Position numbers and translations under genes: made by a program. From Candidatus Kapaibacterium sp. (lineage in GTDB: Bacteria; Bacteroidota; Ignavibacteria; Kapaibacteriales; UBA2268), in the NCBI GenBank assembly GCA_041675005.1, contig JBAYUQ010000001.1, forward strand, positions 66,235-130,234: 64,000 bases of DNA, given 5' to 3'. The notes below the pieces were generated by a model. It had not been told where the DNA came from. It did not search any database and saw only the letters and a program-made list of their open reading frames with translations. How positions within the stretch are numbered: position 1 is the first letter of the stretch; the number at the start of each line of letters is the position of its first letter. This document shows positions 42,676-58,520 of this stretch, in pieces.

Positions 42676-42897
42676 ATTTTTTCTTGTTTTGGATTTCTAA
42701 TAATCCGAAAATTAATCATTTTTGGGGGAATATTTATAGAATTGAATATATTTCTTAACGAGAAATAGTAACAAAATATTAATAATATTAAATTAAATTC
42801 GGCAAAATGAAAAAATAATTAGGTTATTTCATTATTTTTTTTTTTAGTTTCAATTAAATTTTTATTTTAAATCAGAAATTAGTGGGAAAAAATAATA

Positions 42898-43035
42898 AAG
42901 GTCAGAAAAAACTTCGTGGGTAATTCCTGACCTGTATTTATCATCTAAAATTGCACACCTCAAATGATATTTACAAATTTAATGAATTATCCTCAAACAA
43001 TTAAATAAATATTAATTTTTATAGGAATTTCAGAA
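42898..43035 (+). promoter_or_regulatory. Degenerate copy of the cassette leader element upstream of cassette B.
   Basis: ggtcagaaaaaac...cctgacctgta retains the GTCAG/CTGAC inverted repeat and the ttatagg box; the central part has diverged. Confidence 0.4.
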
Positions 43036-44016
43036 ATGAAAAAAATTACAAACATATTGATTGCTCTTGGAGTAACACTATTCCTTCTGACAGTTGGGAT
43101 GAAAAGCGAGGCGGAGGCACAAACACCGCATTGTGATGGTGATCCATGTGTGAATGCTTCTGCTTGTGGTTCTTGGATTCAAGCACCAGATTTACCCATC
43201 CCATTAGACCCAAATTGCCCTTCTTGTATTATGACAATTCGTTACAAATACAGGGATAACTCTGGGTGTAATAATCCATGTCCTAATGCACCTAAATTTG
43301 AATTCCAAATAGATTATGTAGTAACAGATGGTTCTTGCTTTTATCCTTGCAATGGAAACCCTGCTCAGTATAGTTTTAGTCAGATGGATAAATTATATAT
43401 GGAAGCAGTATTTCAGTTAATTAAAAAATATTCATTACCATTTATAACTGTTCCACCGAATCCACCTTTAGGGTGTGGACCTGTTATTCCGAACTTTAAA
43501 GGGACTTCATGTAAAAAGCAATATATTGCTCCTGACGGAAATGTATATATTTTGACTTGTTTTCTAACTGAATGTTGCGTTCAAAATCTTCAATTCTGTG
43601 TAGATATAAACGGTAAAGAGACTATGACTAAGGCTAATATTTATTCGCCGCCTGATAATTGTGGTACTGATCCCGATGGTTTAAGTTGTACTTATTCATG
43701 TGACTGGGAATGGGAAGAATCATTAGTACCAAAAGAAGTGAAAGCACTTCCAAATAATATTTATGATAATTATAAAGTAGATTATACTATTGACCCAAGT
43801 AATTTGAATATAAAATTAGAAGGAGAATTAAATGGGAAGCTTTCTCTAAATATCTTTAGCACTGAAGGTGTTAGTAATATTTATGAAGTATTCAACGTAA
43901 ATGAGACAAGTTTTGAAATTAACTTAGATAATAATTTTACCAATGGTGCTTATTATATGGCTTTCAGTCTCAACGGTGAATTAATTAAAGTTGAAAGTTT
44001 CATGATAGTAAAATAA
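43036..44016 (+). CDS. Cys-rich secreted protein with a T9SS-like CTD; cassette B, gene 1.
   Basis: Signal peptide. NCPSCIMTIRYKYRDNSGCNNPCP and TECCVQNLQFCVDING modules are homologous to the 112-1692 protein. C-terminal ...LSLNIFSTEGVSNIYEV...GAYYMAFSLNGELIKV. Confidence 0.75.
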   Translation: MKKITNILIALGVTLFLLTVGMKSEAEAQTPHCDGDPCVNASACGSWIQAPDLPIPLDPNCPSCIMTIRYKYRDNSGCNNPCPNAPKFEFQIDYVVTDGSCFYPCNGNPAQYSFSQMDKLYMEAVFQLIKKYSLPFITVPPNPPLGCGPVIPNFKGTSCKKQYIAPDGNVYILTCFLTECCVQNLQFCVDINGKETMTKANIYSPPDNCGTDPDGLSCTYSCDWEWEESLVPKEVKALPNNIYDNYKVDYTIDPSNLNIKLEGELNGKLSLNIFSTEGVSNIYEVFNVNETSFEINLDNNFTNGAYYMAFSLNGELIKVESFMIVK

Positions 44017-44034
44017 CAATTCTGAGGTTTTGAT

Positions 44035-45486
44035 ATGATTAAGTATATATTACTATTATTACTAGCAAATAGCTCAGTATTCTCTGTTGATTTTAATAAA
44101 TATGATTTTACTCCATTATTGGTAAAGGAGGGATTTATATTAGAGCAAATCGAAACAAATAGTACTGGTAACATTATTGTATCTGGATATAATAAAATAG
44201 GCGATGATCCTCAAACTCATATTTTTAATAATGTGGTATTGAAATCAATTGATAAGGGATTAAATTGGACTATTATTTATTTAGATTCCAATGAAACTTT
44301 ACCCAAATCTGAAAGGAGTTTCTACAATGTTGAAGAATTGAAGTATTTGGATAACGGTAATATATTACTTTTTTCTCATACAGGGTATATTTTACAATCG
44401 TTTGACGATGGTGAGACTTGGATAAGAGATTCATTAGGTGTGTTCAAAACTCCAGTACAGGTCGAATTTATTGATAGTGAAAATGGTATTGCACTATTTT
44501 TTAAATCTTATGATAAGAAACTTACTACAGAACTATACTTGACAAACGATGGTGGAATGAATTGGAACGAATTAAATGTTCCAGTAAACGCTTTACTTGA
44601 ATATGAAACAGAATTAAGAATAGGGGAGTTCTATTCTTTCGGTGAAGGTACTATTTCATTTTTTATGGTTGATCGTCATTACGAAAATGATTCATTGATT
44701 GAATCAACGAATTACTTAATCAGTTCTCCTAATTATGGTACAACTTGGGAAAAGGAGATATTTAATTTGCCTGTGGAACGTTCAAGAATAAAGTTTTTAG
44801 ATGATAAGTATATTATTCTATTTGGTATTTTGCAATCCAAAACTCATTTTGACAATTTAGGAAATCCTTTTGGTCACGATATTGTTTTGGAGAGCTTCGA
44901 TAGAGGGACTTCTTGGGATACACTTTTAATTAATTTAGATACTAATGTTAATTCTAGTATACAAGGTAGTCTTGAGTATGTTGATGAAAAATATTTATTA
45001 TTCAGGGGGGCAAACTCTGGCATAAGTATTTTTGACAGAGGAAACAAAGGTATTATAGCCCTTTACCCAAATAATATCTTAGAATTAAGAGAACAGTACA
45101 ATTATCAGAATAGCTACGATTATATAAGATTTGGAGATAAAATACTAGTTACTGGTGGTGGTGGTTATCTTTTTTATGTTGACTACAAAAGTCCGATAAC
45201 TTCGGTAGAAGATTTGTTTAGTCAGTCTGAATTAGAGATTTATCCAAACCCAGTTTCTCGTAGTCAATCTATTAATTTAAAATTAGCCCCAGTAGCATGG
45301 GGTATTTCTACAATTTCTATTATTGATATGAATGGTAGAACTATTTCCTCTTTTGATAGGAACTTAACTTCTATTTCAGAGACTTTAGAAATCAATCCAA
45401 ATAATAGTTTGACTTCGGGTCTGTATTTTGTCCAGATTGAATATCCAAACGGATTTGTCGATAGACAGAAGTTTATCGTCAATTGA
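44035..45486 (+). CDS. Asp-box/BNR beta-propeller protein with a T9SS CTD; cassette B, gene 2.
   Basis: SIDKGLNWT, SFDDGETWI, TNDGGMNWN, SPNYGTTWE, SFDRGTSWD; C-terminal EIYPNPVS...GLYFVQIEYPNGFVDRQKFIVN. Confidence 0.8.
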   Translation: MIKYILLLLLANSSVFSVDFNKYDFTPLLVKEGFILEQIETNSTGNIIVSGYNKIGDDPQTHIFNNVVLKSIDKGLNWTIIYLDSNETLPKSERSFYNVEELKYLDNGNILLFSHTGYILQSFDDGETWIRDSLGVFKTPVQVEFIDSENGIALFFKSYDKKLTTELYLTNDGGMNWNELNVPVNALLEYETELRIGEFYSFGEGTISFFMVDRHYENDSLIESTNYLISSPNYGTTWEKEIFNLPVERSRIKFLDDKYIILFGILQSKTHFDNLGNPFGHDIVLESFDRGTSWDTLLINLDTNVNSSIQGSLEYVDEKYLLFRGANSGISIFDRGNKGIIALYPNNILELREQYNYQNSYDYIRFGDKILVTGGGGYLFYVDYKSPITSVEDLFSQSELEIYPNPVSRSQSINLKLAPVAWGISTISIIDMNGRTISSFDRNLTSISETLEINPNNSLTSGLYFVQIEYPNGFVDRQKFIVN

Positions 45487-48096: not shown

Positions 48097-49248
48097 GTGG
48101 AATATATGAAAAAACAATACATAATCTTATTTGTCAGTCTAGTTATGCTTTTTGCAATAAAAAGCGAAAGCATTGCACAAAATGACATAGCAAGTTCTCG
48201 TCAAAATGCGATAACTCGAGCAATAGAGAAAGCTAGTCCTGCCATTGTAGGTATAAACGTAACAGAAGTAAGGCAGGTACTATATCGTAATCCTTATGGA
48301 GGTACTTTATTCGAGAGATTTTTTGGTAAGCAAAGAGATAGAGTACGTGAGTATGAAGTAAAAGGACTCGGTTCGGGGTTTATCATCTCTCCTGACGGAT
48401 ATATCCTAACTAATAACCACGTAGCTGGCAATGCAAAGAAAGTAGTTATCACAACCACTGACGGCAAGAGATACGATGCCGAAATTATAGGCACAGACCC
48501 AGCTACCGATATTGCTTTGCTAAAGATAAAATCTGATGATAAACTACCATATATACAATTCGCAAATTCCGATGATTTGATAATAGGTGAATGGGCTATT
48601 GCACTAGGTAACCCATTTGGACTATTCGATATAAATGCAAAACCGACTGTAACAGTTGGAGTTATATCTAATAAAGGCGTGAACTTCCTAGAGGAGCAAG
48701 ACAAACGGTTAACTGTTTACAAAGATATGATTCAGACCGACGCAGCAATAAGCTCGGGTAACTCTGGTGGACCTTTGGTGAATGCCGAAGGGAAGGCAAT
48801 AGGTATGAATACAATGATTTTTTCAACAGCTCAATCTCAATCGGGTTCAGGTAGTATAGGAATTGGGTTTTCCATTCCTATCAACAGAGTTAGCCAAATA
48901 GTTGAGTTGATAAAATCAAAGAAGGTTATTAACCGCAATGTTTTCTTAGGACTAGAAATACAAGAAATTGACGACAAGGTGATATCTTATCTAAACTTAC
49001 CAGACATAAGAGGAGTAGTTATATACTCTACACAAAACAACGGTCCAGCGAATAGAGCAGGGTTAGAACCCGGTGATGTGATACTTACAATCAATGGTCG
49101 GAAAGTGATGAGAGAAGATGATTACTATATTGAAATATATGATAGCATGGTCGGAGATACTATGGAATTTCAAATCCTGCGTGGAGATAAGGAAAAAACT
49201 ATTAAATTGCAGTTAGAAGAACCCCAACAAAACAGAAGATATAGATAG
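48097..49248 (+). CDS. HtrA/DegP-family trypsin-like serine protease with a PDZ domain.
   Basis: Catalytic motifs TNNHV, D.ALLK and GNSGGPL; C-terminal PDZ. Confidence 0.85.
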
Positions 49249-50009
49249 TGGAAGAAGGCAAATCAGTTCTATCAGCACAAGGACTAATCAAAATCTATGG
49301 CAAACGAACAGTTGTCAAAGGGATAGACATAGAAGTAAAGCAAGGTGAAATAGTCGGTCTGCTTGGTCCCAACGGAGCTGGTAAGACTACAGCCTTCTAT
49401 ATGATAGTTGGTATGGTTCGACCGAATAAGGGTATAGTACGAATAGATGATAAAAAGATTACCCGTAAGGCGATGTACCAACGCGCTAGAATGGGTATTA
49501 GTTATCTGCCACAAGAGCCATCTATATTCCGTAAGCTATCAGTTGAAGATAATATAAAAGCTGTACTCCAGCTACAAAAAGGACTCAGCCGAAAGCAAGT
49601 AAAGGAAAAGTTAGAACAGCTCCTTGAAGATTTTAAAATTGCTCGTGTGCGTAAGAGTAAGGGGTATATGCTTTCGGGAGGGGAGAGACGCCGTTGCGAG
49701 ATAGCCCGAACGCTAGCATCAGACCCCAAATTCATTCTCTTAGATGAGCCATTCGCAGGAATTGACCCTATTTCAGTAGAAGATATTATGGATATTATCT
49801 TTGCTCTTAAAAACAAGGGAATTGGAATACTAATCACCGATCACAACGTCCACGAAACTCTGTCAATCACTGATAGAGCTTACATTCTAATAGACGGCAG
49901 TCTATTCACGAGCGGAAAATCCGAAGAAGTAGCTGCTAATCCTGATGTCCTCAAGTTTTACCTCGGCGAGAATTTCCGCTTGGAAAGATACGTACCTAAA
50001 GACCTATAA
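49248..50009 (+). CDS. lptB: LPS export ABC transporter ATP-binding protein.
   Basis: Walker [10 protein letters not shown]; signature LSGGERRR; Walker B ILLDEP; GTG start overlapping the htrA stop. Confidence 0.85.
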
Positions 50010-50130
50010 GCAATAAGTAAATTCGCCACTTTTGCCTACTTTGTTACTAATTCAACTCCCCCTTAACTCTAGTTATAACATTTATATACAATTGTTGATA
50101 AAAGCTGCTTGTTTTTTAAAATAAATTTGG

Positions 50131-50145
50131 ATTTTATTTTATTTT
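50131..50145. repeat. (ATTTT)3 pentanucleotide tract in the cassette C upstream region.
   Basis: ggATTTTATTTTATTTTaaac; the homologous position in the duplicate copy (53896-53935) carries 8 units. Confidence 0.8.
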
Positions 50146-50278
50146 AAACTTGATACAAATGAAATTAATCAATATTTGTAAACTGTTCTATAAAATGAAT
50201 TACAAATGAATCCAACAACAAAGCACCACTCATCTGGAGGCAAAAAGTGGTTTTCAAATTCTAGTAGATATAAAAAAA

Positions 50279-50401
50279 GTCAGAAAAAACGAAAGTCGTT
50301 TTTCCTGACCTGTAGTTGTCAAACTAATTCTGACCGAACACATTTGACAGTCACAAATATAGCAATAATTATTTATTATTAACATATTTATAGGTAAGCA
50401 A
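50279..50401 (+). promoter_or_regulatory. Conserved leader/promoter element, copy C.
   Basis: 13-bp imperfect inverted repeat GTCAGAAAAAACG-aaagt-CGTTTTTCCTGAC (50279-50309); TTGTCAAA-N19-TTTGACAG inverted repeat; putative -33 TTTG and -7 TAatTAtT boxes; ends at the ATG. Confidence 0.6.
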
Positions 50402-51001
50402 ATGAAAACTCTAAAATTTATCTTATTAAGCGTAGTTGTTTTTATTATAACTATTAATTTCTCTAATGCCGCTCCTTGTCCTTTAGGACAAAGTACTGTT
50501 TATAAGACTTTCCTAATAACTTACAACGGTGTATCTTGTTGGGTTGAAGCACAAATCTGTGCCGATTGTGATATTACTGGAAGTAATGTATATTTAGCAG
50601 TGAACGACATAAAAAAACCAAGTTACCCAGGAATTCCAACAGCCATAATTTATCAACAAGTTGCTGCTCAGTTATCTGAGAATGTATTTGAAATCTGTCA
50701 AATTGAACCTTGTAGTTCTCCTACAACTTCAAAAGTTTACGTAAAAACACCAGTTTGTGTGAAAAAATCTGCTGTTATGGAATTTGGAAACCTTTATATT
50801 TATATTATACCTTGTGATTGGAGTGCATACTATGAAGTTTATACACAAACTTGTTTTGATCCAATTTTGGATGACTATATAACAACACCAGTTGGTGTAG
50901 AAAAGTTTGGAACACCAAGTTGTACTGCGTTAGCCGAACCAGGCGATCCAGCTATAGATAACGTTACAGATTGCTACCAACAAGACTGTTTTCAAGATTA
51001 A
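50402..51001 (+). CDS. Small Cys-rich secreted protein (no CTD); cassette C, gene 1.
   Basis: Signal peptide (..SNA/AP); 14 Cys; C-x2-E-x3-C-x2-C and P.IP...I..Q...Q.S modules shared with the 54194-54838 protein. Confidence 0.7.
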   Translation: MKTLKFILLSVVVFIITINFSNAAPCPLGQSTVYKTFLITYNGVSCWVEAQICADCDITGSNVYLAVNDIKKPSYPGIPTAIIYQQVAAQLSENVFEICQIEPCSSPTTSKVYVKTPVCVKKSAVMEFGNLYIYIIPCDWSAYYEVYTQTCFDPILDDYITTPVGVEKFGTPSCTALAEPGDPAIDNVTDCYQQDCFQD

Positions 51002-51014
51002 TAATAATAGAAAT

Positions 51015-53444
51015 ATGAAATACATTTTAATTCTTATAGCTTTAAGTACTAACCTTATAGCACAGCAATTCAATATAACCCCTTTGAGTATTAATTTCAA
51101 TGGGGTTATATCTATTGATGATAATATAGTTATTTATGGTGATAACGGTTATTATTATTTCTCTCAAGATGGAGCAAATAATTGGGAACAAAGACTGTTG
51201 CTTGAGCAAAAGAACATTCGCAAAATACAAGAGAATAATGGCGTACTTTATGGTATTTTGGAAGATGGTTATCTGATCAAATCAACTAACAAAGGGTTAG
51301 ATTGGAGGATAACGAAATTTGAAAATGATACTAGTATGAAATTTGTTACTATGGATGTAAATGATAAAAATGTATATGTCCGAGGCATAGACGAAATTTT
51401 AAAATTTGACTTAGATTTTAACTTAGTTAAAAGATATAAAAATTCAATTCTAAACTATTATGGGCCATCCCTAATCTTCACTTATGATGTGAATTTAATA
51501 AACAAATTCATACAGTATTATAATGGTTATTTAGTTGTTCCTCTACAAAATGAAAATTATCTGATTTTAAACGATGAATTAGAATATATTAAGGAAGTCT
51601 ATCTCATTGATTCTTTAGATGCGATTGATGACCCAGATGCTAGATTGATAGATATGATTGTATATGGTGATGAATTATTAGTCACTCTTGATGGTCCCAT
51701 TAAAAGTGGATTAGACTATTTTATAATAAATGAAACAAATCTACTCGGGAAGTGGGATGAAATAGTTCTTAGTAAAGATAGAAAAAGACTTTTATTTAGT
51801 AGCTTTAAAAATGAACTTTATACTTTAGAATTTAGTGTTGAAACTAATGAAGAAGATGTTGGAAGTACTTGGAGATTTAAGGCAAGTGTTAGTAAATATA
51901 GATTACGAAAATATAATAAAGTTACTAATGATTTTGATTCAATCGGGGAATGGTTTGATTCATTTTTTGTTCTTGGTTTAACTAGAGTTACAGAAAATGG
52001 ATACTCGCCTATTTATACAAATAAACCAAATATAACATCGGATTCAACTGTATTAGTAGTTGGTGATAAAAAAACTATTCTTACCTCACAATATGGTAAA
52101 AACTGGAATTTATTCTCTTATATTGAAGGAACTCCTAGTCAGATATTTAATGATAACGTCTATTTGAATAAAGGTATTTACGCTTCTACGACGAAAGACG
52201 GTGGACTATCAAGCACAAATAGGCGAATAGTAGATACTACTGATTGTCATTATTGCAAATTCACTAATTTTCATCAATCATTTATCAGCCCCAATGGAAA
52301 TGGTTTTCTTTATGGAAGTCCAATTTATGACACTTGGGCTAATATTGGATTTACCAAAGATAGTGGCAATACTTTTGAATTTTCATACAATACTGATTTC
52401 TATTTTAGAACTTTCAAATTTGCAACAAACTTTGCTGAATTAGGAGACGAGTATTGTACAATCCATAATCGAAAAACAACCGCTTCTAACCCTTTGCTTA
52501 GCAGTATGTGGGTTACGTATGCATATTACTTCAATAAAGATGATTTCAGTGATTATAGGATGGAAGTATTAGATACTAACGAATATAGATACTATTACTT
52601 ATTTACTCAAAGTGCGGATTATTATCAACAAGTTAGATATAACTTCGAACAACTTCACCCTAAAGATCAGTTTTTAGAGATAAGGACTACAACTGATGCT
52701 GGTAAGAGTTGGACTTCTTTTCATAAGATTCAGAATTATTCGGAGAATTTTAAGTTTTATGAGCATAACAAAGATAGTTTATTTATTACTAGCTATGGAT
52801 ACACAAGTTATGGGGATTTTGATTATACTAATAGAGTGTATCTTTATGACAGAACGAGAGATGTAGTCGATACCTTATTTAGTGAAGACGAGGTAAATAG
52901 AAAAAATCTGCAACTTGTTTTCTTTGATAATCATTTTTATATAATGGGTGATAGCATACTCAAAGTAGGTAATAAAACTCTAACAGAATGGTCTGATGTA
53001 CAGAATTGGCCAACTCAGAACCCATCATTTGAAGAAGTCTTATCGAATGGAAATGTAATTCTAACTAAATACAAAGATGATACTAGAAAGTCAAAGGATT
53101 TCTATTTAGATAATTATTATAAGATAGTAGCTGATAAAACTACAGATGTCGAAATTACAACTGTTGCGCTTAGAACTTATGAAGCATATCCAAATCCAAC
53201 TACTGGGAAAGTATTTGCTGAGATATATTGGCAATCTGGTTTTGATATATTTGAATCTATCAAAGGTGTTTATGATATATCAGGTAATCTGGTTTCAACA
53301 AGGGAGCAAATCGCATTGACAAAATCCCATAACTATTCTGGATTATTAGAATGGGATAGTAGCTCACATCCGTCCGGGATTTATTTCATTGTAATTAAAC
53401 ATGGGAACAATAAACAATCGATTCCATTTGTGGTGGTTGAATAA
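51015..53444 (+). CDS. Large Asp-box/BNR beta-propeller protein with a T9SS CTD; cassette C, gene 2.
   Basis: SQDGANNWE, STNKGLDWR, TTDAGKSWT, TKDSGNTFE; C-terminal AYPNPTTGKV...GIYFIVIKHGNNKQSIPFVVVE. Confidence 0.8.
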   Translation: MKYILILIALSTNLIAQQFNITPLSINFNGVISIDDNIVIYGDNGYYYFSQDGANNWEQRLLLEQKNIRKIQENNGVLYGILEDGYLIKSTNKGLDWRITKFENDTSMKFVTMDVNDKNVYVRGIDEILKFDLDFNLVKRYKNSILNYYGPSLIFTYDVNLINKFIQYYNGYLVVPLQNENYLILNDELEYIKEVYLIDSLDAIDDPDARLIDMIVYGDELLVTLDGPIKSGLDYFIINETNLLGKWDEIVLSKDRKRLLFSSFKNELYTLEFSVETNEEDVGSTWRFKASVSKYRLRKYNKVTNDFDSIGEWFDSFFVLGLTRVTENGYSPIYTNKPNITSDSTVLVVGDKKTILTSQYGKNWNLFSYIEGTPSQIFNDNVYLNKGIYASTTKDGGLSSTNRRIVDTTDCHYCKFTNFHQSFISPNGNGFLYGSPIYDTWANIGFTKDSGNTFEFSYNTDFYFRTFKFATNFAELGDEYCTIHNRKTTASNPLLSSMWVTYAYYFNKDDFSDYRMEVLDTNEYRYYYLFTQSADYYQQVRYNFEQLHPKDQFLEIRTTTDAGKSWTSFHKIQNYSENFKFYEHNKDSLFITSYGYTSYGDFDYTNRVYLYDRTRDVVDTLFSEDEVNRKNLQLVFFDNHFYIMGDSILKVGNKTLTEWSDVQNWPTQNPSFEEVLSNGNVILTKYKDDTRKSKDFYLDNYYKIVADKTTDVEITTVALRTYEAYPNPTTGKVFAEIYWQSGFDIFESIKGVYDISGNLVSTREQIALTKSHNYSGLLEWDSSSHPSGIYFIVIKHGNNKQSIPFVVVE

Positions 53445-53455
53445 AAATAAATCTA

Positions 53456-53481
53456 AAGGAGCCAACTCGGCTCCTTTTTTC
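53456..53481 (+). terminator. Rho-independent terminator of cassette C.
   Basis: AAAGGAGCCaactCGGCTCCTTTTTT. Confidence 0.75.
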
Positions 53482-53608
53482 TATTTATTCTCCTCTTACA
53501 ATAACTAACTTAATAACAAGTTTATACACCAATCATTATTTGTTTGCAATTGCTTCTTTTTGATAGTAATTTTGCAACTACCTAAAAAGATAATATTTGG
53601 AGATTAAT

Positions 53609-53773
53609 ATGCCATTCGTTCCAGCATCGGACAAAGATAGAGCATATATACTAATAGACGGCAGTCTATTCACTAGCGGAAAATCCGAAGAAGTGGCTGC
53701 TAATCCTGATGTCCTCAAGTTTTACCTCGGTGAGAATTTCCGCTTAGAAAGATACGTCCCGAAAGACCTATAA
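53609..53773 (+). pseudogene. Chimeric 54-codon ORF marking the tandem-duplication junction: gcvPA codons 1-11 fused in frame to the last ~43 codons of lptB.
   Basis: Translation MPFVPASDKDR|[43 protein letters not shown]. The first part matches 57183..., the second matches 49879-50009. The junction lies at the shared GATAGAG microhomology. Confidence 0.85.
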
Positions 53774-53895
53774 TCAACAAGTGAACTTGTTCCCTTGTTC
53801 CAATATTGTCACCCTCCCTATACATTTCTAACTCTAGTTATAACACTGCGATAAAAATGTTAATAAAAAACGCTTGTTTTTAATAAATAATTTGG

Positions 53896-53935
53896 ATTTT
53901 ATTTTATTTTATTTTATTTTATTTTATTTTATTTT
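53896..53935. repeat. (ATTTT)8 pentanucleotide microsatellite in the cassette D upstream region.
   Basis: Eight tandem ATTTT units, versus three at the homologous position 50131-50145. Confidence 0.85.
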
Positions 53936-54068
53936 AAATTTGATACAAATGAAATTAATCAATATTTGTAAACTGTTCTATAAAATGAATTACAAATGAA
54001 TCCATCAAAAAAGCACCACTTAACTGGAGACAAAAAGTGGTTTTCAAATTCTAGTAGATATAAAAAAA

Positions 54069-54193
54069 GTCAGAAAAAACGAAAGTCGTTTTTCCTGACC
54101 TGTAGTTGTCAAACTAATTCTTGCCGAACACATTTGACAGTTACAAATATAGCAATAATTATTTATTATTAACATATTTTGTGGAGTTAAAAA
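54069..54193 (+). promoter_or_regulatory. Conserved leader/promoter element, copy D.
   Basis: Near-identical to 50279-50401, including the GTCAGAAAAAACG/CGTTTTTCCTGAC hairpin (54069-54099). Confidence 0.6.
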
Positions 54194-54838
54194 ATGAAAG
54201 CAACAATTAACAATTTGATTTTTTTAAGTATAACAATATTCGTTGCCAAAAGCATTAATATTGAAGCCAAACCTATTTGTACCAAACCATGGGTAAATAT
54301 CGTAGATACAGTTACAGTTGACGGATGTGATTATGAAATAGATTTATGTGTATACTGTGCATTCGCTTATCCAGGGAAAGTTAAAATTAATTATTATAGA
54401 AATATTAGTGGATGTACACCTACCATACCACCTAATCAAATAACAAATCAAATTATATCTCAAATCTCAACGTATGCCTATTTTTGGTTTGATTATTGTC
54501 AATTCAATTTACCCCCGTGTTCAGGTTCACTGCGTAAAAAAATAGAATGGGATATTTATATATGTTGGAAGGCTAAATTAGTAATTAAAGGTGCGACCCC
54601 ACATGATGATGTCTACCTCCATTTACCTTGTGAAGATAATGATACCTTCTGTCGTGTTACTTATTCTTATTGTGTAGATGAGTTTGCCGTTGTTCATCAT
54701 AATGTTTCTGGATACTTAGGCTATAATTTTGATCCTTCATGTACACTGGAAGGTTCAGCAGTATTCCCTTTACCACCATCCGCTATGGTTGGAGATGAGA
54801 CAGCATGTTACGTTTTACACACGGTATGTAACCCATAG
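54194..54838 (+). CDS. Small Cys-rich secreted protein (no CTD); cassette D, gene 1.
   Basis: Signal peptide; 20 Cys; CVYCAFAYPGKVKINYYRNISGC matches the CxxC-x3-I-x-Y-x-YR-N module of the 112 and 43036 proteins. Confidence 0.7.
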   Translation: MKATINNLIFLSITIFVAKSINIEAKPICTKPWVNIVDTVTVDGCDYEIDLCVYCAFAYPGKVKINYYRNISGCTPTIPPNQITNQIISQISTYAYFWFDYCQFNLPPCSGSLRKKIEWDIYICWKAKLVIKGATPHDDVYLHLPCEDNDTFCRVTYSYCVDEFAVVHHNVSGYLGYNFDPSCTLEGSAVFPLPPSAMVGDETACYVLHTVCNP

Positions 54839-54844
54839 AATAAT

Positions 54845-57001
54845 ATGTATAAATTTCTTATAGTATTAATTTTCATAATCCCTTTTGCATCAAATGCCAA
54901 TATTTGGACTAAGGCGGATGGGCCATTTGGTTATGCTATGTCGTACAATATTTTCAATTATGATAATAATCTATATTCATCTAGTCAATCTAATGGTTTA
55001 TCAGTATATAAATTAGATAATAAAGAATGGACACGATTAGATACTGGTTTCTTTTCTGGCAAAGGATTAATACATTATTTTGATCAAAAAGAAAACGTAG
55101 TACTTACTTCTACTGATTCAGGTATTTATTTGTCCTATAATTATGGAAAGGACTGGAAGCATTTTGATACATTAGGTGGTTTTGATAGATTTCATTTTGT
55201 CACCATTGTTGACGAAACAATATTTTTACAATCCAACCAATTCAGAAGTTTGTATAAACTTGAAAAGGGTTCTGAGACTTTAGAAAAAATATATGCTAAT
55301 GAACAAAAAACAGACTCTATATTTGCTGATGTTATTATAACGAATGATAACTATATTTTTGCTGCTGACCCTGTTAAACATTATGATGTTCAAGATAAAG
55401 AAGGGACATTATATATATCAAGTGACAAAGGAGAAAGTTGGAAACTATCTGAAACAATGAATAAAAAAATCAAGAATTTATTATTTCATGAGGATATATT
55501 ATTAGCCTTTACTGAAGAAGATGGATTATTTAGGTCAACCGACTACGGAAAAAGTTGGACTACTGATACAAATTTAGTAATTAAATCAAATAAAGTAGCT
55601 TCCTATAAGAATTTGATTTTTTCATGTGAGAACGAAATACAAATTTCTACTGATAACGGAATCAGTTGGAAAGTTCAAAACAATGGTTTAAAGTCAATTG
55701 CTTGTAGGGATATTCGTATAGTAAATGATACATTATATTACTTTACAAATCAAAGAATAATATATTATTTCGATTATGAAAATAAATTGTGGATAAGAAA
55801 TACTCCAATTACTGATGACGTGTCTCAAGAGTTTATTTCAGCAGAAAATGATACTCTATTCACAACAGGATCATATACGATAAACTATTCGATTGATAAT
55901 GGATTAACTTGGAGTATATATAGTGATAGTTTGTATTACAATTTTACAAACATTGGAAGAATATATAAGCAAGATAGTGTAATATTTGCCTTAAATCGCC
56001 TTAATTCTTTACTCTTAATCTCGATTGATTATGGACAATCTTGGAGATTTGAAACTTTAGGAAAATCTGAAAATCAACCTTGGATAGGCGATGTATTGCT
56101 AATGGACAATCGAATACTCCTCTTTACAAAGTTTGGTAATTTTTATTCTGAAGATGTTGGTTTAAATTGGGTTGAGTATGAAGGGGAAGTACTAGATAAG
56201 GATGTGAAAGTAAGAAGATATTATAGACTAAGTAATTCCAAAATAATTGTTTATAGTGAGGTAGGGCTTTATCTAACCTATAATAATGGATTAACTTGGG
56301 TCTATGAAAAAGCTGACGAAGAAGTAATGACCCACTACTATACTTACAGAGAAGATAATAATTTATATACAATGGACTTTCTTGAATTTGATCAAATATA
56401 TAAATCTACTAACTTAGGACGTACTTGGGTTGATTTAGAAATAAATATAGAATCTGGTTTAAGGTGGGCTAGTATAATACCATATAATGGTAATTTAATA
56501 TTGTTAACTAGTACTGGAGTTTTTGTTTCTGATAATGAAGGAAAAGAATGGACAAAATATGAGATTAATTTATTTACTCCTGACCAAAAGGAACTTTATT
56601 TCTATAGTGGGTTAATTGTTGATGAGTGTTTAGTATTAACCTCTGCTTATGGTAATTGGCGAGCGAAACTCTCCGATCTTGGAGTTGAAGTAAAGTCTTC
56701 CGTCGAATCAGAAATAGAGCGAAACTATCTATATACTTATCCACCATACCCTAACCCAGCAAAATCAGAGGTAAAGGTTCTGTTTTATTGGGATATAAAC
56801 TTACCAATGACGACAGACGACATTAGCATATATGATATAACTGGTAAGAAAATAGATGCGATTGATAAGATTAGCTTAGTTAAGCAAGAGAGTCATTATG
56901 GCAACCTAATCTGGGATTGCTCTACAGCTCAGCCGGGTATATACCTAATCAACATAAAACATGGCACAGAAGAGAAAACCGTGAAAGTGGTGGTGGAGTA
57001 G
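54845..57001 (+). CDS. Asp-box/BNR beta-propeller protein with a T9SS CTD; cassette D, gene 2.
   Basis: Ten Asp-box-like repeats (SYNYGKDWK, SSDKGESWK, STDYGKSWT, STDNGISWK, SIDNGLTWS, SIDYGQSWR, SEDVGLNWV, TYNNGLTWV, STNLGRTWV, SDNEGKEWT); C-terminal YPPYPNPAKSEV...GIYLINIKHGTEEKTVKVVVE. Confidence 0.8.
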   Translation: MYKFLIVLIFIIPFASNANIWTKADGPFGYAMSYNIFNYDNNLYSSSQSNGLSVYKLDNKEWTRLDTGFFSGKGLIHYFDQKENVVLTSTDSGIYLSYNYGKDWKHFDTLGGFDRFHFVTIVDETIFLQSNQFRSLYKLEKGSETLEKIYANEQKTDSIFADVIITNDNYIFAADPVKHYDVQDKEGTLYISSDKGESWKLSETMNKKIKNLLFHEDILLAFTEEDGLFRSTDYGKSWTTDTNLVIKSNKVASYKNLIFSCENEIQISTDNGISWKVQNNGLKSIACRDIRIVNDTLYYFTNQRIIYYFDYENKLWIRNTPITDDVSQEFISAENDTLFTTGSYTINYSIDNGLTWSIYSDSLYYNFTNIGRIYKQDSVIFALNRLNSLLLISIDYGQSWRFETLGKSENQPWIGDVLLMDNRILLFTKFGNFYSEDVGLNWVEYEGEVLDKDVKVRRYYRLSNSKIIVYSEVGLYLTYNNGLTWVYEKADEEVMTHYYTYREDNNLYTMDFLEFDQIYKSTNLGRTWVDLEINIESGLRWASIIPYNGNLILLTSTGVFVSDNEGKEWTKYEINLFTPDQKELYFYSGLIVDECLVLTSAYGNWRAKLSDLGVEVKSSVESEIERNYLYTYPPYPNPAKSEVKVLFYWDINLPMTTDDISIYDITGKKIDAIDKISLVKQESHYGNLIWDCSTAQPGIYLINIKHGTEEKTVKVVVE

Positions 57002-57027
57002 GAATTCCCAATCACAAAGTAAAAACA

Positions 57028-57054
57028 AAAGGAGCCAACTTGGCTCCTTTTTTC
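57028..57054 (+). terminator. Rho-independent terminator of cassette D.
   Basis: AAAAGGAGCCaactTGGCTCCTTTTTT; one-base difference from the cassette C terminator. Confidence 0.75.
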
Positions 57055-57182
57055 TATTTATACCCATCTTACAATAACTAACTTAATAACAAGTTTATAC
57101 ACCAATCATTATTTGTTTGCAATTACATCTTTTTGATAGTAATTTTGCAACTACCTAAAAAGATAATATTTGGAGATTAAAA

Positions 57183-58520
57183 ATGCCTTTCGTTCCAGCA
57201 TCGGACAAAGATAGAGAATATATGCTAAGTAAAATTGGCGTACAAAATTTTGAACAATTAATAGAAAACATCCCATCTGAAGTACGTTACAGAGGTGGTA
57301 TGGATTTCCCAGAGCAGCTTTCGGAGTACGAAGTAACTCGTCTTATGCTCTCTTATTCTAATATGAATAACTCTGCTTCTTCGCATATCTGCTTTATGGG
57401 CGGTGGTGCTTATGAAAGATATATCCCTTCTATCGTAGGTGATACTATCAACAGAGCTGAGTTTCGTACAGCATATACGCCTTACCAAGCAGAAGTATCG
57501 CAAGGTACTTTGCAGGCTATGTATGAGTTCCAAACTATGATTTGTGAGCTATATGGTATGGATGTTGCCAATGCTTCTATGTATGATGGTGGTACTGCAC
57601 TTGCAGAGGCAGTTCTTATGTCAACAGCAATCAACCGTAAAACAGAATTTGTTTATGTTGGTACTATCAACCCTAACTACAAAGATGTAGTAAAAACAAT
57701 CACACAAGGTAGAAAGTTCACTTATCTAGATGCAGTTGCTGCAGATGGAACTACTGATTTCGAAAAGTTGAAATCGTTACTAAGTGATAAAACTTCTGCT
57801 GTAGTAGTTCAACAACCTAATTTCTTGGGTTCAATTGAAGATGTACGTGAAATAGAGAAATTAGCACATGCTAATGGAAGTTTATTTATAGTTGCTGCCG
57901 ATCCATTCTCAGTTGGTGTATTAGAAGCACCGGGTAACTACAATGCAGATATAGTTATCGCTGAAGGGCAACCTTTAGGTATCCCACTTAGTTATGGTGG
58001 TCCTTACCTAGGTATATTCGCTTGTAAACAAGAATTTGTACGTAAGATTCCTGGACGTTTAGCAGGTGTTACTTCTGATTTAGATGGTAAACGTGGTTTT
58101 GTATTAACTTTACAAACTCGTGAACAGCAAATCAAACGTGAGAAAGCTACATCTAATATCTGTACTAACCAAGGTCTTTTCATGTTAGCGGCCACTGTTT
58201 ATTTGGAAACAATGGGAAAAGCTGGTGTGAAGGAAGTTGCTGAGCAATCATTCCATAAAGCACATTACCTAGCTGAGAGAATTACGGAATTAGATGGTTA
58301 CGAATTATTCAACGATAAGCCATTCGTATTCGAATTTGCTGTTAATGTACCCGGAGATATAGAAGTTCTATTAGATCAAGCAAATGAAGCAGGTTTCTTA
58401 GCTGGTATAAATGTTTCTAAACATGTAAATAGTCCTAACACACTACTTATAACAGTTACTGAAACTAGAACTAAAAAAGAAATGGATGATTTCGTTGATT
58501 TCTTGAAGCAATTCAAATAA
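57183..58520 (+). CDS. gcvPA: Glycine dehydrogenase (decarboxylating) subunit 1 (split P-protein, N-terminal half).
   Basis: 445 aa; ...TAYTPYQAEVSQGTLQAMYEFQTMI... conserved glycine cleavage P-protein region; no gcvPB adjacent. Confidence 0.85.
   Translation: MPFVPASDKDREYMLSKIGVQNFEQLIENIPSEVRYRGGMDFPEQLSEYEVTRLMLSYSNMNNSASSHICFMGGGAYERYIPSIVGDTINRAEFRTAYTPYQAEVSQGTLQAMYEFQTMICELYGMDVANASMYDGGTALAEAVLMSTAINRKTEFVYVGTINPNYKDVVKTITQGRKFTYLDAVAADGTTDFEKLKSLLSDKTSAVVVQQPNFLGSIEDVREIEKLAHANGSLFIVAADPFSVGVLEAPGNYNADIVIAEGQPLGIPLSYGGPYLGIFACKQEFVRKIPGRLAGVTSDLDGKRGFVLTLQTREQQIKREKATSNICTNQGLFMLAATVYLETMGKAGVKEVAEQSFHKAHYLAERITELDGYELFNDKPFVFEFAVNVPGDIEVLLDQANEAGFLAGINVSKHVNSPNTLLITVTETRTKKEMDDFVDFLKQFK

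Follow-up and report, generated by a model that had tools for sequence, protein, structure and literature searches.

SSR contingency loci are textbook features of such host-adapted pathogens as Neisseria, Haemophilus, Campylobacter, and Mycoplasma. To our knowledge, the phase variation known from the Bacteroidota/Chlorobiota superphylum is almost wholly DNA inversion. The poly-C tract of opc and the (TA)n tract of hifA/B are both SSRs in promoter spacers. The poly-G tract of porA likewise lies between core elements, where slippage shifts the length of the spacer and the strength of the promoter (PMC3639595). In M. gallisepticum, each vlhA paralogue carries a (GAA)n tract between conserved flanks, and just the allele with 12 GAA is considered active (PMC6258824). 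The (TAAA)n tract of nadA in N. meningitidis is distal, being located upstream of the -35 element between NadR operators with IHF, and exerts graded control at a single locus (PMC2791445). In Bacteroides, invertible promoters of the TAnnTTTG type provide stochastic on/off control of capsule and OMV loci by site-specific inversion between inverted repeats (PMC4747536).

The (ATTTT)8 tract described here lies in a stretch of 64,000 nt from Candidatus Kapaibacterium sp. (GenBank assembly GCA_041675005.1, contig JBAYUQ010000001.1, positions 66,235 to 130,234), which is called the window and whose LptB protein carries this taxon name at NCBI. Its closest analogue in logic is vlhA, while in geometry it is nearer to the promoter-spacer tracts of Neisseria (porA). 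With vlhA it shares a multigene family of variable surface or secreted products, an SSR belonging to each copy, and unit numbers that differ among paralogues and strains. The single permissive length of vlhA also parallels the narrow permissive spacing proposed for the Kapaibacterium tract. However, the vlhA repeat is a trinucleotide ~40 nt upstream of the start site and outside the core promoter, whereas a pentanucleotide is repeated here; phylum and sigma type differ as well, and just 3-4 copies were seen in the Kapaibacterium genome. The nadA tract would be alike in that its AT-rich units alter the spacing of promoter elements and its product is located at the surface, but the Kapaibacterium tract is flanked by conserved blocks, apparently abuts the -7 box, and has no known regulator. 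While the 1-2 bp units of porA, opc, and hifA/B allow fine steps at sigma-70 promoters (-35/-10), a 5-bp unit would cause all-or-none jumps, and the candidate Kapaibacterium promoter is of the FCB type (-33/-7). The Bacteroides promoters would resemble it in their stochastic surface control, superphylum, and promoter type, yet they do not switch by slippage, and neither flanking inverted repeats nor a recombinase were seen at the Kapaibacterium tract. The principle of SSR contingency promoters is already known; the unit size, promoter type, environmental uncultured taxon, and T9SS cargo are different. Literature searches returned nothing on phase variation in Kapabacteria.

Tract and cassettes in the Kapaibacterium genome

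The tract at 53896-53935 (plus strand) comprises eight perfect units or 40 nt in the leader of cassette copy D, and a homologous (ATTTT)3 tract with shared flanks is found in copy C at 50131-50145 (plus strand). Tandem Repeats Finder assigned period 5, 8.2 copies, and 100% matches to 53896-53936, with a score of 82 that was the highest of the window and was followed by 53 for the second-ranked repeat; the copy C tract (50131-50146) was given 3.2 copies. These two are the only runs of at least three ATTTT units on both strands of the whole window. The stretches from tract to ATG (50131-50389 vs 53921-54179) are 97% identical, and a 25-nt gap in the tract is the sole length difference between the copies in this alignment. 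The original prediction had placed the two tracts at homologous positions ~265 nt upstream of the start codons, and both direct reading and Tandem Repeats Finder agree with the homology; the distance was close, with 257 and 259 nt measured from the tract 3′ end to the ATG in copies C and D, respectively. At the base composition of the window (A = 0.32, T = 0.34), seven extra exact ATTTT units would arise by chance with a probability of ~3e-17 per position, and a chance origin of (ATTTT)8 is thereby excluded. Tract D was seen in one accessible assembly, and the window matches part of the 580-kb ENA contig ERZ27247358 k141_1852216 without any difference. The Logan contigs of SRR6484325 stop ~45 nt before each cassette ATG because the leader is repeated, and the tracts are thus not covered by them.

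In a third paralogous leader, copy A, the tract at the corresponding position is (ATTTT)6 (L005 9705-9734). Its 3′ end occupies 1-111 of the window (plus strand), its tract lies ~180 nt to the left of window base 1, and the rest of the leader beyond the left end was retrieved via its encoded protein. Three paralogous promoters of a single genome thus differ in their tracts, with 3, 6, and 8 units, and, as at vlhA, each has its SSR between conserved flanks. The diverged leader of copy B (42676-43035, plus strand) has kept both hairpins and has ~2 units and a T11 run at 42835-42845. This run is located ~30 nt upstream of a box-like TAAATCAG and may be another kind of slippery tract at a similar promoter.

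Each leader heads a two-gene cassette, in which a small Cys-rich secreted protein is encoded along with a larger one that bears a T9SS sorting domain. In cassette D (54194-57001, plus strand), a Cys-rich secreted protein of 214 aa (54194-54838) is followed by a BNR/T9SS protein of 718 aa (54845-57001; BNR 1.6e-11, Por_Secre_tail 3.6e-10). Cassette C (50402-53444, plus strand) pairs a Cys-rich secreted protein of 199 aa (50402-51001) with a T9SS-sorted protein of 809 aa (51015-53444). Cassette B occupies 43036-45486 behind the diverged leader, and cassette A begins at window base 112 downstream of porU-porV. The small Cys-rich proteins matched no Pfam family. The larger ones carry Por_Secre_tail, the T9SS C-terminal sorting domain, joined by BNR or Sortilin-Vps10-type repeats in copies A, B, and D; these repeats were not detected in the larger protein of copy C. 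The genes behind the tracts encode products with signal peptides, Por_Secre_tail, and BNR repeats. Cassette A directly follows porU (Peptidase_C25) and porV, which are T9SS components (L005 4081-9297), and the linkage of porV with a leader recurs in HGW-Ignavibacteriae-4 (L009).

Cassettes C and D stand in tandem in the order lptB (49248-50009), C, D, gcvPA (57183-58520). At the junction of the tandem units (53449-53785, plus strand), a duplicated gcvPA promoter region with 13 codons is joined to the last 150 nt of lptB, leaving a chimeric 54-aa ORF at 53610-53774. In the junction alignment, the crossover that leads from codons 1-13 of gcvPA into the 3′ end of lptB falls on the microhomology GATAGAG. 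The junction repeats D3 and D4 are 95 and 92% identical, respectively, and the cassette flanks overall 92-97%, but the small proteins of cassettes C and D share just 25% identity. This disparity suggests that the tandem originated from the gain of a foreign allele, by circle integration or homology-facilitated recombination, and not from simple duplication followed by divergence.

The interval between lptB and gcvPA is a strain-variable island (L030-L046, L064). It is empty in L032, where gcvPA comes right after lptB, holds a minus-strand arylsulfotransferase gene in L030, L034-L036, L040, L041, L043, and L044, and contains differing cassettes in L031, L033, L020, L042, and L066. A palindrome, ACAAGGGAAC/GTTCCCTTGT, marks the 5′ edge of the promoter module at 53787-53808 of the window and also occurs in the leaders of L016 and L018; in the latter, its arms have changed in a compensatory way (GGAAAC/GTTCTC). 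The palindrome might bind a protein, or it might act against read-through from lptB as a terminator or insulator.

Tract variation in related lineages

Public genomes and metagenomes were scanned with an invariant 19-mer of the leader, and more leader copies were obtained from MAGs labeled as Ignavibacteriota/Chlorobiota. L010, L012, L013, and L017 proved to be chance matches to the 19-mer when their sequences were read and were discarded. LptB homologues served as anchors to reach the orthologous locus downstream of lptB. A period-5 tract was found at the identical position in every leader, across several Candidatus Kapaibacterium genomes. Unit number ranged from 2 to 8 and four types of unit occurred, ATTTT, ATGTT, AAATT, and AATTT, all of which fit A-n-n-T-T with A1, T4, and T5 invariant. 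ATTTT was repeated three times in L008, L014, L042, and L045, five times in nine assemblies (L020, L022-L029), six times in L037, and seven times in L021. ATGTT occurred in six units in L011 and L015 and in seven, one of them variant, in L018; AATTT in six units in L007; and AAATT in four, five, and six units in L067 with L068, L066, and L031, respectively. L009 and L016 contain two versions of a degenerate tract. Both ATTTT and AATTT are present in the HKST-UBA125 MAG, with five units at one copy (L027) and six at another (L007). Pure arrays of differing units imply that point mutations spread through repeated expansion and contraction. Apart from homopolymers and one (TC)10, no SSR of at least 18 nt in the 385 kb of retrieved Kapaibacterium DNA falls outside this tract family.

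In more distant lineages by LptB (87-89% identity), leader and tract are absent and an unrelated polymorphic (TC)n is present. It sits between lptB and an FGE-sulfatase gene, ~195-215 nt past the lptB stop, and has 7, 8, or 10 units among near-identical assemblies (L047-L056). Irregular leader sequences were also noted. On the reverse strand of L008 (5991-6140), a second promoter module with (ATTTT)2 followed by ATTAT leads straight onto a Cys-rich gene with TAA as its second codon, an arrangement that could reflect either a pseudogene or faulty assembly. In L024 (3960-4138, a Logan contig), one leader variant turns into another midway, either because the assembly is chimeric across the repeat or because leaders have truly recombined. 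In L016, the leader is broken within the first hairpin (~5600), with unrelated sequence beyond.

Changes of unit number were observed between closely related strains. L020 (GCA_020635265.1) and L021 (GCA_041391585.1) have 5 and 7 units, respectively, and differ over 6762 nt by a single mismatch and a 10-nt gap. L066 has 5 units and L067/L068 have 4, with seven mismatches and a single gap of 5 nt over 3579 nt, and L038 and L042 have at least 6 and 3 units at 99.1% identity. L011 and L015 both have 6 units at 99.6% identity, and L008, L042, and L045 all have 3 units at 99.4-100% identity. Five units were found in nine of the ten assemblies of the L020-L029 group, and the eight assemblies besides L020 and L021 are from other samples. 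An assembly artefact behind the change from 5 to 7 is excluded, as the count of 5 is shared by nine independent assemblies, a read is longer than the tract, and the difference is exactly two units in 6.7 kb of otherwise identical sequence.

Because 5 vs 7 units coincide with a single SNP and 4 vs 5 with seven SNPs, the orthologous tracts are shown to be length-hypermutable, whole units being gained or lost at a much higher per-site rate than changes in the flanks. These comparisons are between consensus assemblies of orthologous tracts in two related lineages, in which minority alleles are hidden. Unit number was unchanged between L011 and L015 and among L008, L042, and L045. Change is therefore frequent relative to substitutions, while switching at the pace by which phase variation is defined (1e-3 to 1e-5 per generation) goes beyond what these comparisons show. 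The earlier expectation of a slippage-prone tract that varies by whole units was therefore borne out beyond the paralogues, in orthologous tracts of near-identical assemblies. Its proposed check for unit heterogeneity in populations, made here on orthologues instead of tract D, returned the differences of 5 vs 7 and 4 vs 5.

Probable promoter elements, spacing, and rival explanations

Promoter-like elements were found on both sides of the tract. A TTG, the candidate -33 element, lies one base before it at 53892-53894 in copy D (plus strand; 50127-50129 in copy C), and 15 of 16 distinct modules have TTG plus one nucleotide in front of the tract. The tract 3′ end abuts the candidate -7 box, which is TAAATTTG at 53935-53942 in copy D, TAAACTTG at 50145-50152 in copy C (both plus strand), and TAAGTTTG, directly after the tract, in copy A. 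In every module, the 8-mer that follows the tract has no more than one mismatch to TAnnTTTG. The primary sigma factor of Bacteroidota recognizes the published consensus TTG-N17-23-TAnnTTTG, the box of which spans -12 to -5 in Flavobacterium (PMC9723704); the promoter consensus of Chlorobaculum is of a related form (bioRxiv 10.1101/172254). Among 66 non-redundant gene starts of Kapaibacterium sequences, nine perfect TAnnTTTG boxes start 31-50 nt before the gene, with ~1.2 expected (~7-fold enrichment). The closest TTG was 12-21 nt upstream in 6 of the 13 perfect boxes that possess an upstream TTG. A sigma-70 reading was set aside, as a scan returned 29 sites against 27.3 expected from shuffles, and the FCB-type box was preferred after the enrichment test.

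Upstream of the tract, the alignment of 11 leaders delimits a further, conserved part of the promoter module (53806-53895, plus strand; 50041-50130 in copy C), in which the motifs TTGTYAC..., TAACTCTAGTTATAAC, GTTRATAAAA, and TTGTTTT are possibly regulator sites. Downstream, a module of ~250 nt stretches from the box to the ATG and is the presumed 5′ UTR of cassette D (53943-54193, plus strand; 50153-50401 in copy C). It is 97% identical between copies C and D and is kept across species. UTR-less variants occur in L031, L066-L068, and the second L008 copy, where the upstream module with its tract is joined straight to the gene; the absence of the 250-nt module there shows that it is separable from the promoter. 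In these variants, 41 nt lie between the post-tract sequence and the ATG, and the box starts 49 nt before the ATG. Given the enrichment of the box upstream of genes and this typical distance of -49 in the UTR-less copies, the sequences at 53935-53942 and 50145-50152 are probably -7 boxes, and the TTG at 53892-53894 and 50127-50129 is probably the -33 element. The link to a promoter proposed earlier is supported in so far as TTG and TAnnTTTG-like elements bracket the tract, while the geometry probably differs from the one proposed, the tract apparently lying inside the -33/-7 spacer, not far upstream. With the tract apparently in the core promoter, the conserved "leader" downstream of it would be a long 5′ UTR and not a promoter.

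The distance from TTG to box was a multiple of 5 in all modules. It was 10 bp in the second L008 copy, 15 bp in C, L008, L014, and L067, 20 bp in L016, L066, and L009 (the last counted by hand), 25 bp in the L020 group, L011, and L031, 30 bp in A, L037, and L018, 35 bp in L021, and 40 bp in D. The two most degenerate tracts, L016 and L009, which are no longer pure arrays, are both at exactly 20 bp, and only 15-20 bp is compatible with the other promoters here.

With slightly better than even confidence, we regard the tract as a promoter-embedded hypermutable SSR that alters transcription. Slipped-strand mispairing would gain or lose whole 5-bp units of a spacer between the TTG (-33) and the TAnnTTTG-like box (-7) of a primary sigma factor of the Bacteroidota/Chlorobiota type, and since the tract fills this gap, each unit would shift the spacing by 5 bp. 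The permissive spacing of 15-20 bp, equal to 3-4 ATTTT units, is predicted from the promoter consensus only, and longer tracts would fall outside it. Copy C (15 bp) would be at or beside the active length, and copies A (30 bp) and D (40 bp) would be weak or silent until contraction. The outcome would be a heritable, reversible, copy-by-copy variation of the secreted or surface cassette that is expressed. Promoter assignment, active length, and effect on expression are what we infer from these sequences. A point in favor is that the cassette products are secreted or surface proteins (Por_Secre_tail, BNR), which are the usual targets of contingency switching. Since most pure tracts measure 25-40 bp, beyond the canonical range, the spacer switch would require that, in most populations, the consensus shows the majority of copies switched off.

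Spacings of 10-40 bp are all found with intact cassettes, and a helical-phasing test on the distance between the conserved blocks that flank the tract, which is 66-91 nt, detected neither a mod-5 nor a mod-10.5 constraint. Both observations would suit a neutral microsatellite, a slippery AT-rich filler whose length has no regulatory consequence. We consider this unlikely, as a long pure array is kept at one exact position of the highly conserved module in many lineages, with turnover of its units and in genomes otherwise poor in SSRs, as the invariant A1, T4, and T5 match the TAnnTT core of the -7 box, and as promoter-like elements bracket the tract. The region 20-90 nt upstream of the tract contains strongly conserved blocks (a GTTAC...GTAAC palindrome and GTTGAWAAAA), which would be compatible with control from a distance, in which the core promoter works without the TTG and the tract sets the distance or helical face between the -7 box and upstream regulator sites, or acts as an AT-rich, UP-like enhancer, with graded output as at nadA. 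The nadA precedent (PMC2791445), the near half helical turn of one unit, and the weak conservation of -33 elements in this genome would fit such control. It is nevertheless distinctly improbable in our assessment, because both parities of unit number are present in no pattern, no regulator or binding site was identified, and the UTR-less L066 retains a variable tract without part of the upstream block.

Some lineages have a competing TAnnTTTG box on the other side of the tract, at its 5′ junction. The copy C version is TAAATTTG at 50122-50129, with a conserved TTG 23-24 nt upstream, and if the boxes in A, C, L011, and L066 are the real ones, the tract is transcribed and not a spacer. That this junction box is the true -7 box seems very unlikely to us, as does a transcription start in the first unit, so that (AUUUU)n forms the mRNA 5′ end, and an effect of the tract on promoter escape, stability, or translation is to be judged with the same strong reserve. 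The box is perfect in A, C, L011/L015, and L066/L067/L031, and the conserved GTTGAWAAAA lies ~24 nt upstream of it; however, this spacing of 24 exceeds N17-23, the box is poor in the L008, L014, and L020 lineages, and it has gained or lost bases between TA and TTTG in front of intact cassettes (TAATTTG in D, TAAAATTTG in L018). The UTR-less copies would, moreover, have an atypical distance of ~77 nt from box to ATG.

The presumed 5′ UTR module and implications

On the minus strand of the 5′ UTR module, 54062-54151 appears to be an ~80-nt sRNA gene antisense to the cassette 5′ UTR, with counterparts at 50272-50361 in copy C, 1-68 in copy A, and ~42895-42975 in copy B. The candidate gene has a conserved TAnnTTTG-type box, TATATTTG, at 54151-54144 (68-61 in copy A), a first hairpin at 54138-54106, six bases after the box, and a terminator hairpin of 14-16 bp at 54099-54069, followed by T7 at 54068-54062, all on the minus strand. 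The minus strand folds with -31.5 kcal/mol (z = -6.6). Across 11 copies, the helices are paired in 95.8% of pair cells when read on the minus strand vs 82.2% on the plus strand, because a G.U pair on the former corresponds to A.C on the latter. The element is shared by all long-leader copies, among them the diverged copy B, whose helices show a compensatory change. No match was found in Rfam at E <=1 on either strand of 49000-58000.

The same module contains a conserved hairpin, CACCACT...AGTGGT, at 54014-54041 (50224-50251 in copy C), with a Shine-Dalgarno-like GGAG or GGAGG loop and, after it, a GTG and a very short ORF. A GTG-initiated uORF was set aside as its peptide is not conserved between copies, and a riboswitch-like element was set aside as the plus-strand fold of the whole 5′ UTR reached merely z = -3.0.

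Tract and antisense candidate could also be combined, which we regard as highly speculative. The tract would then be an array of tandem partial -7 boxes (TAnnTT every 5 bp), slippage would select the cassette whose promoter is able to fire, and near-identical antisense sRNAs would act in trans on the other leaders, making expression of the cassettes mutually exclusive. If true, this would be antigenic variation by SSR plus antisense RNA in a free-living Bacteroidota/Chlorobiota group.

The spacer switch, if confirmed, would place T9SS cargo of an uncultured environmental Kapaibacterium under a slippage-controlled promoter of the TTG/TAnnTTTG type. The unit number of each cassette would then be a simple marker of subpopulation dynamics in metagenomic time series, and free-living members, too, would hedge their surface and secreted repertoire through localized hypermutation.
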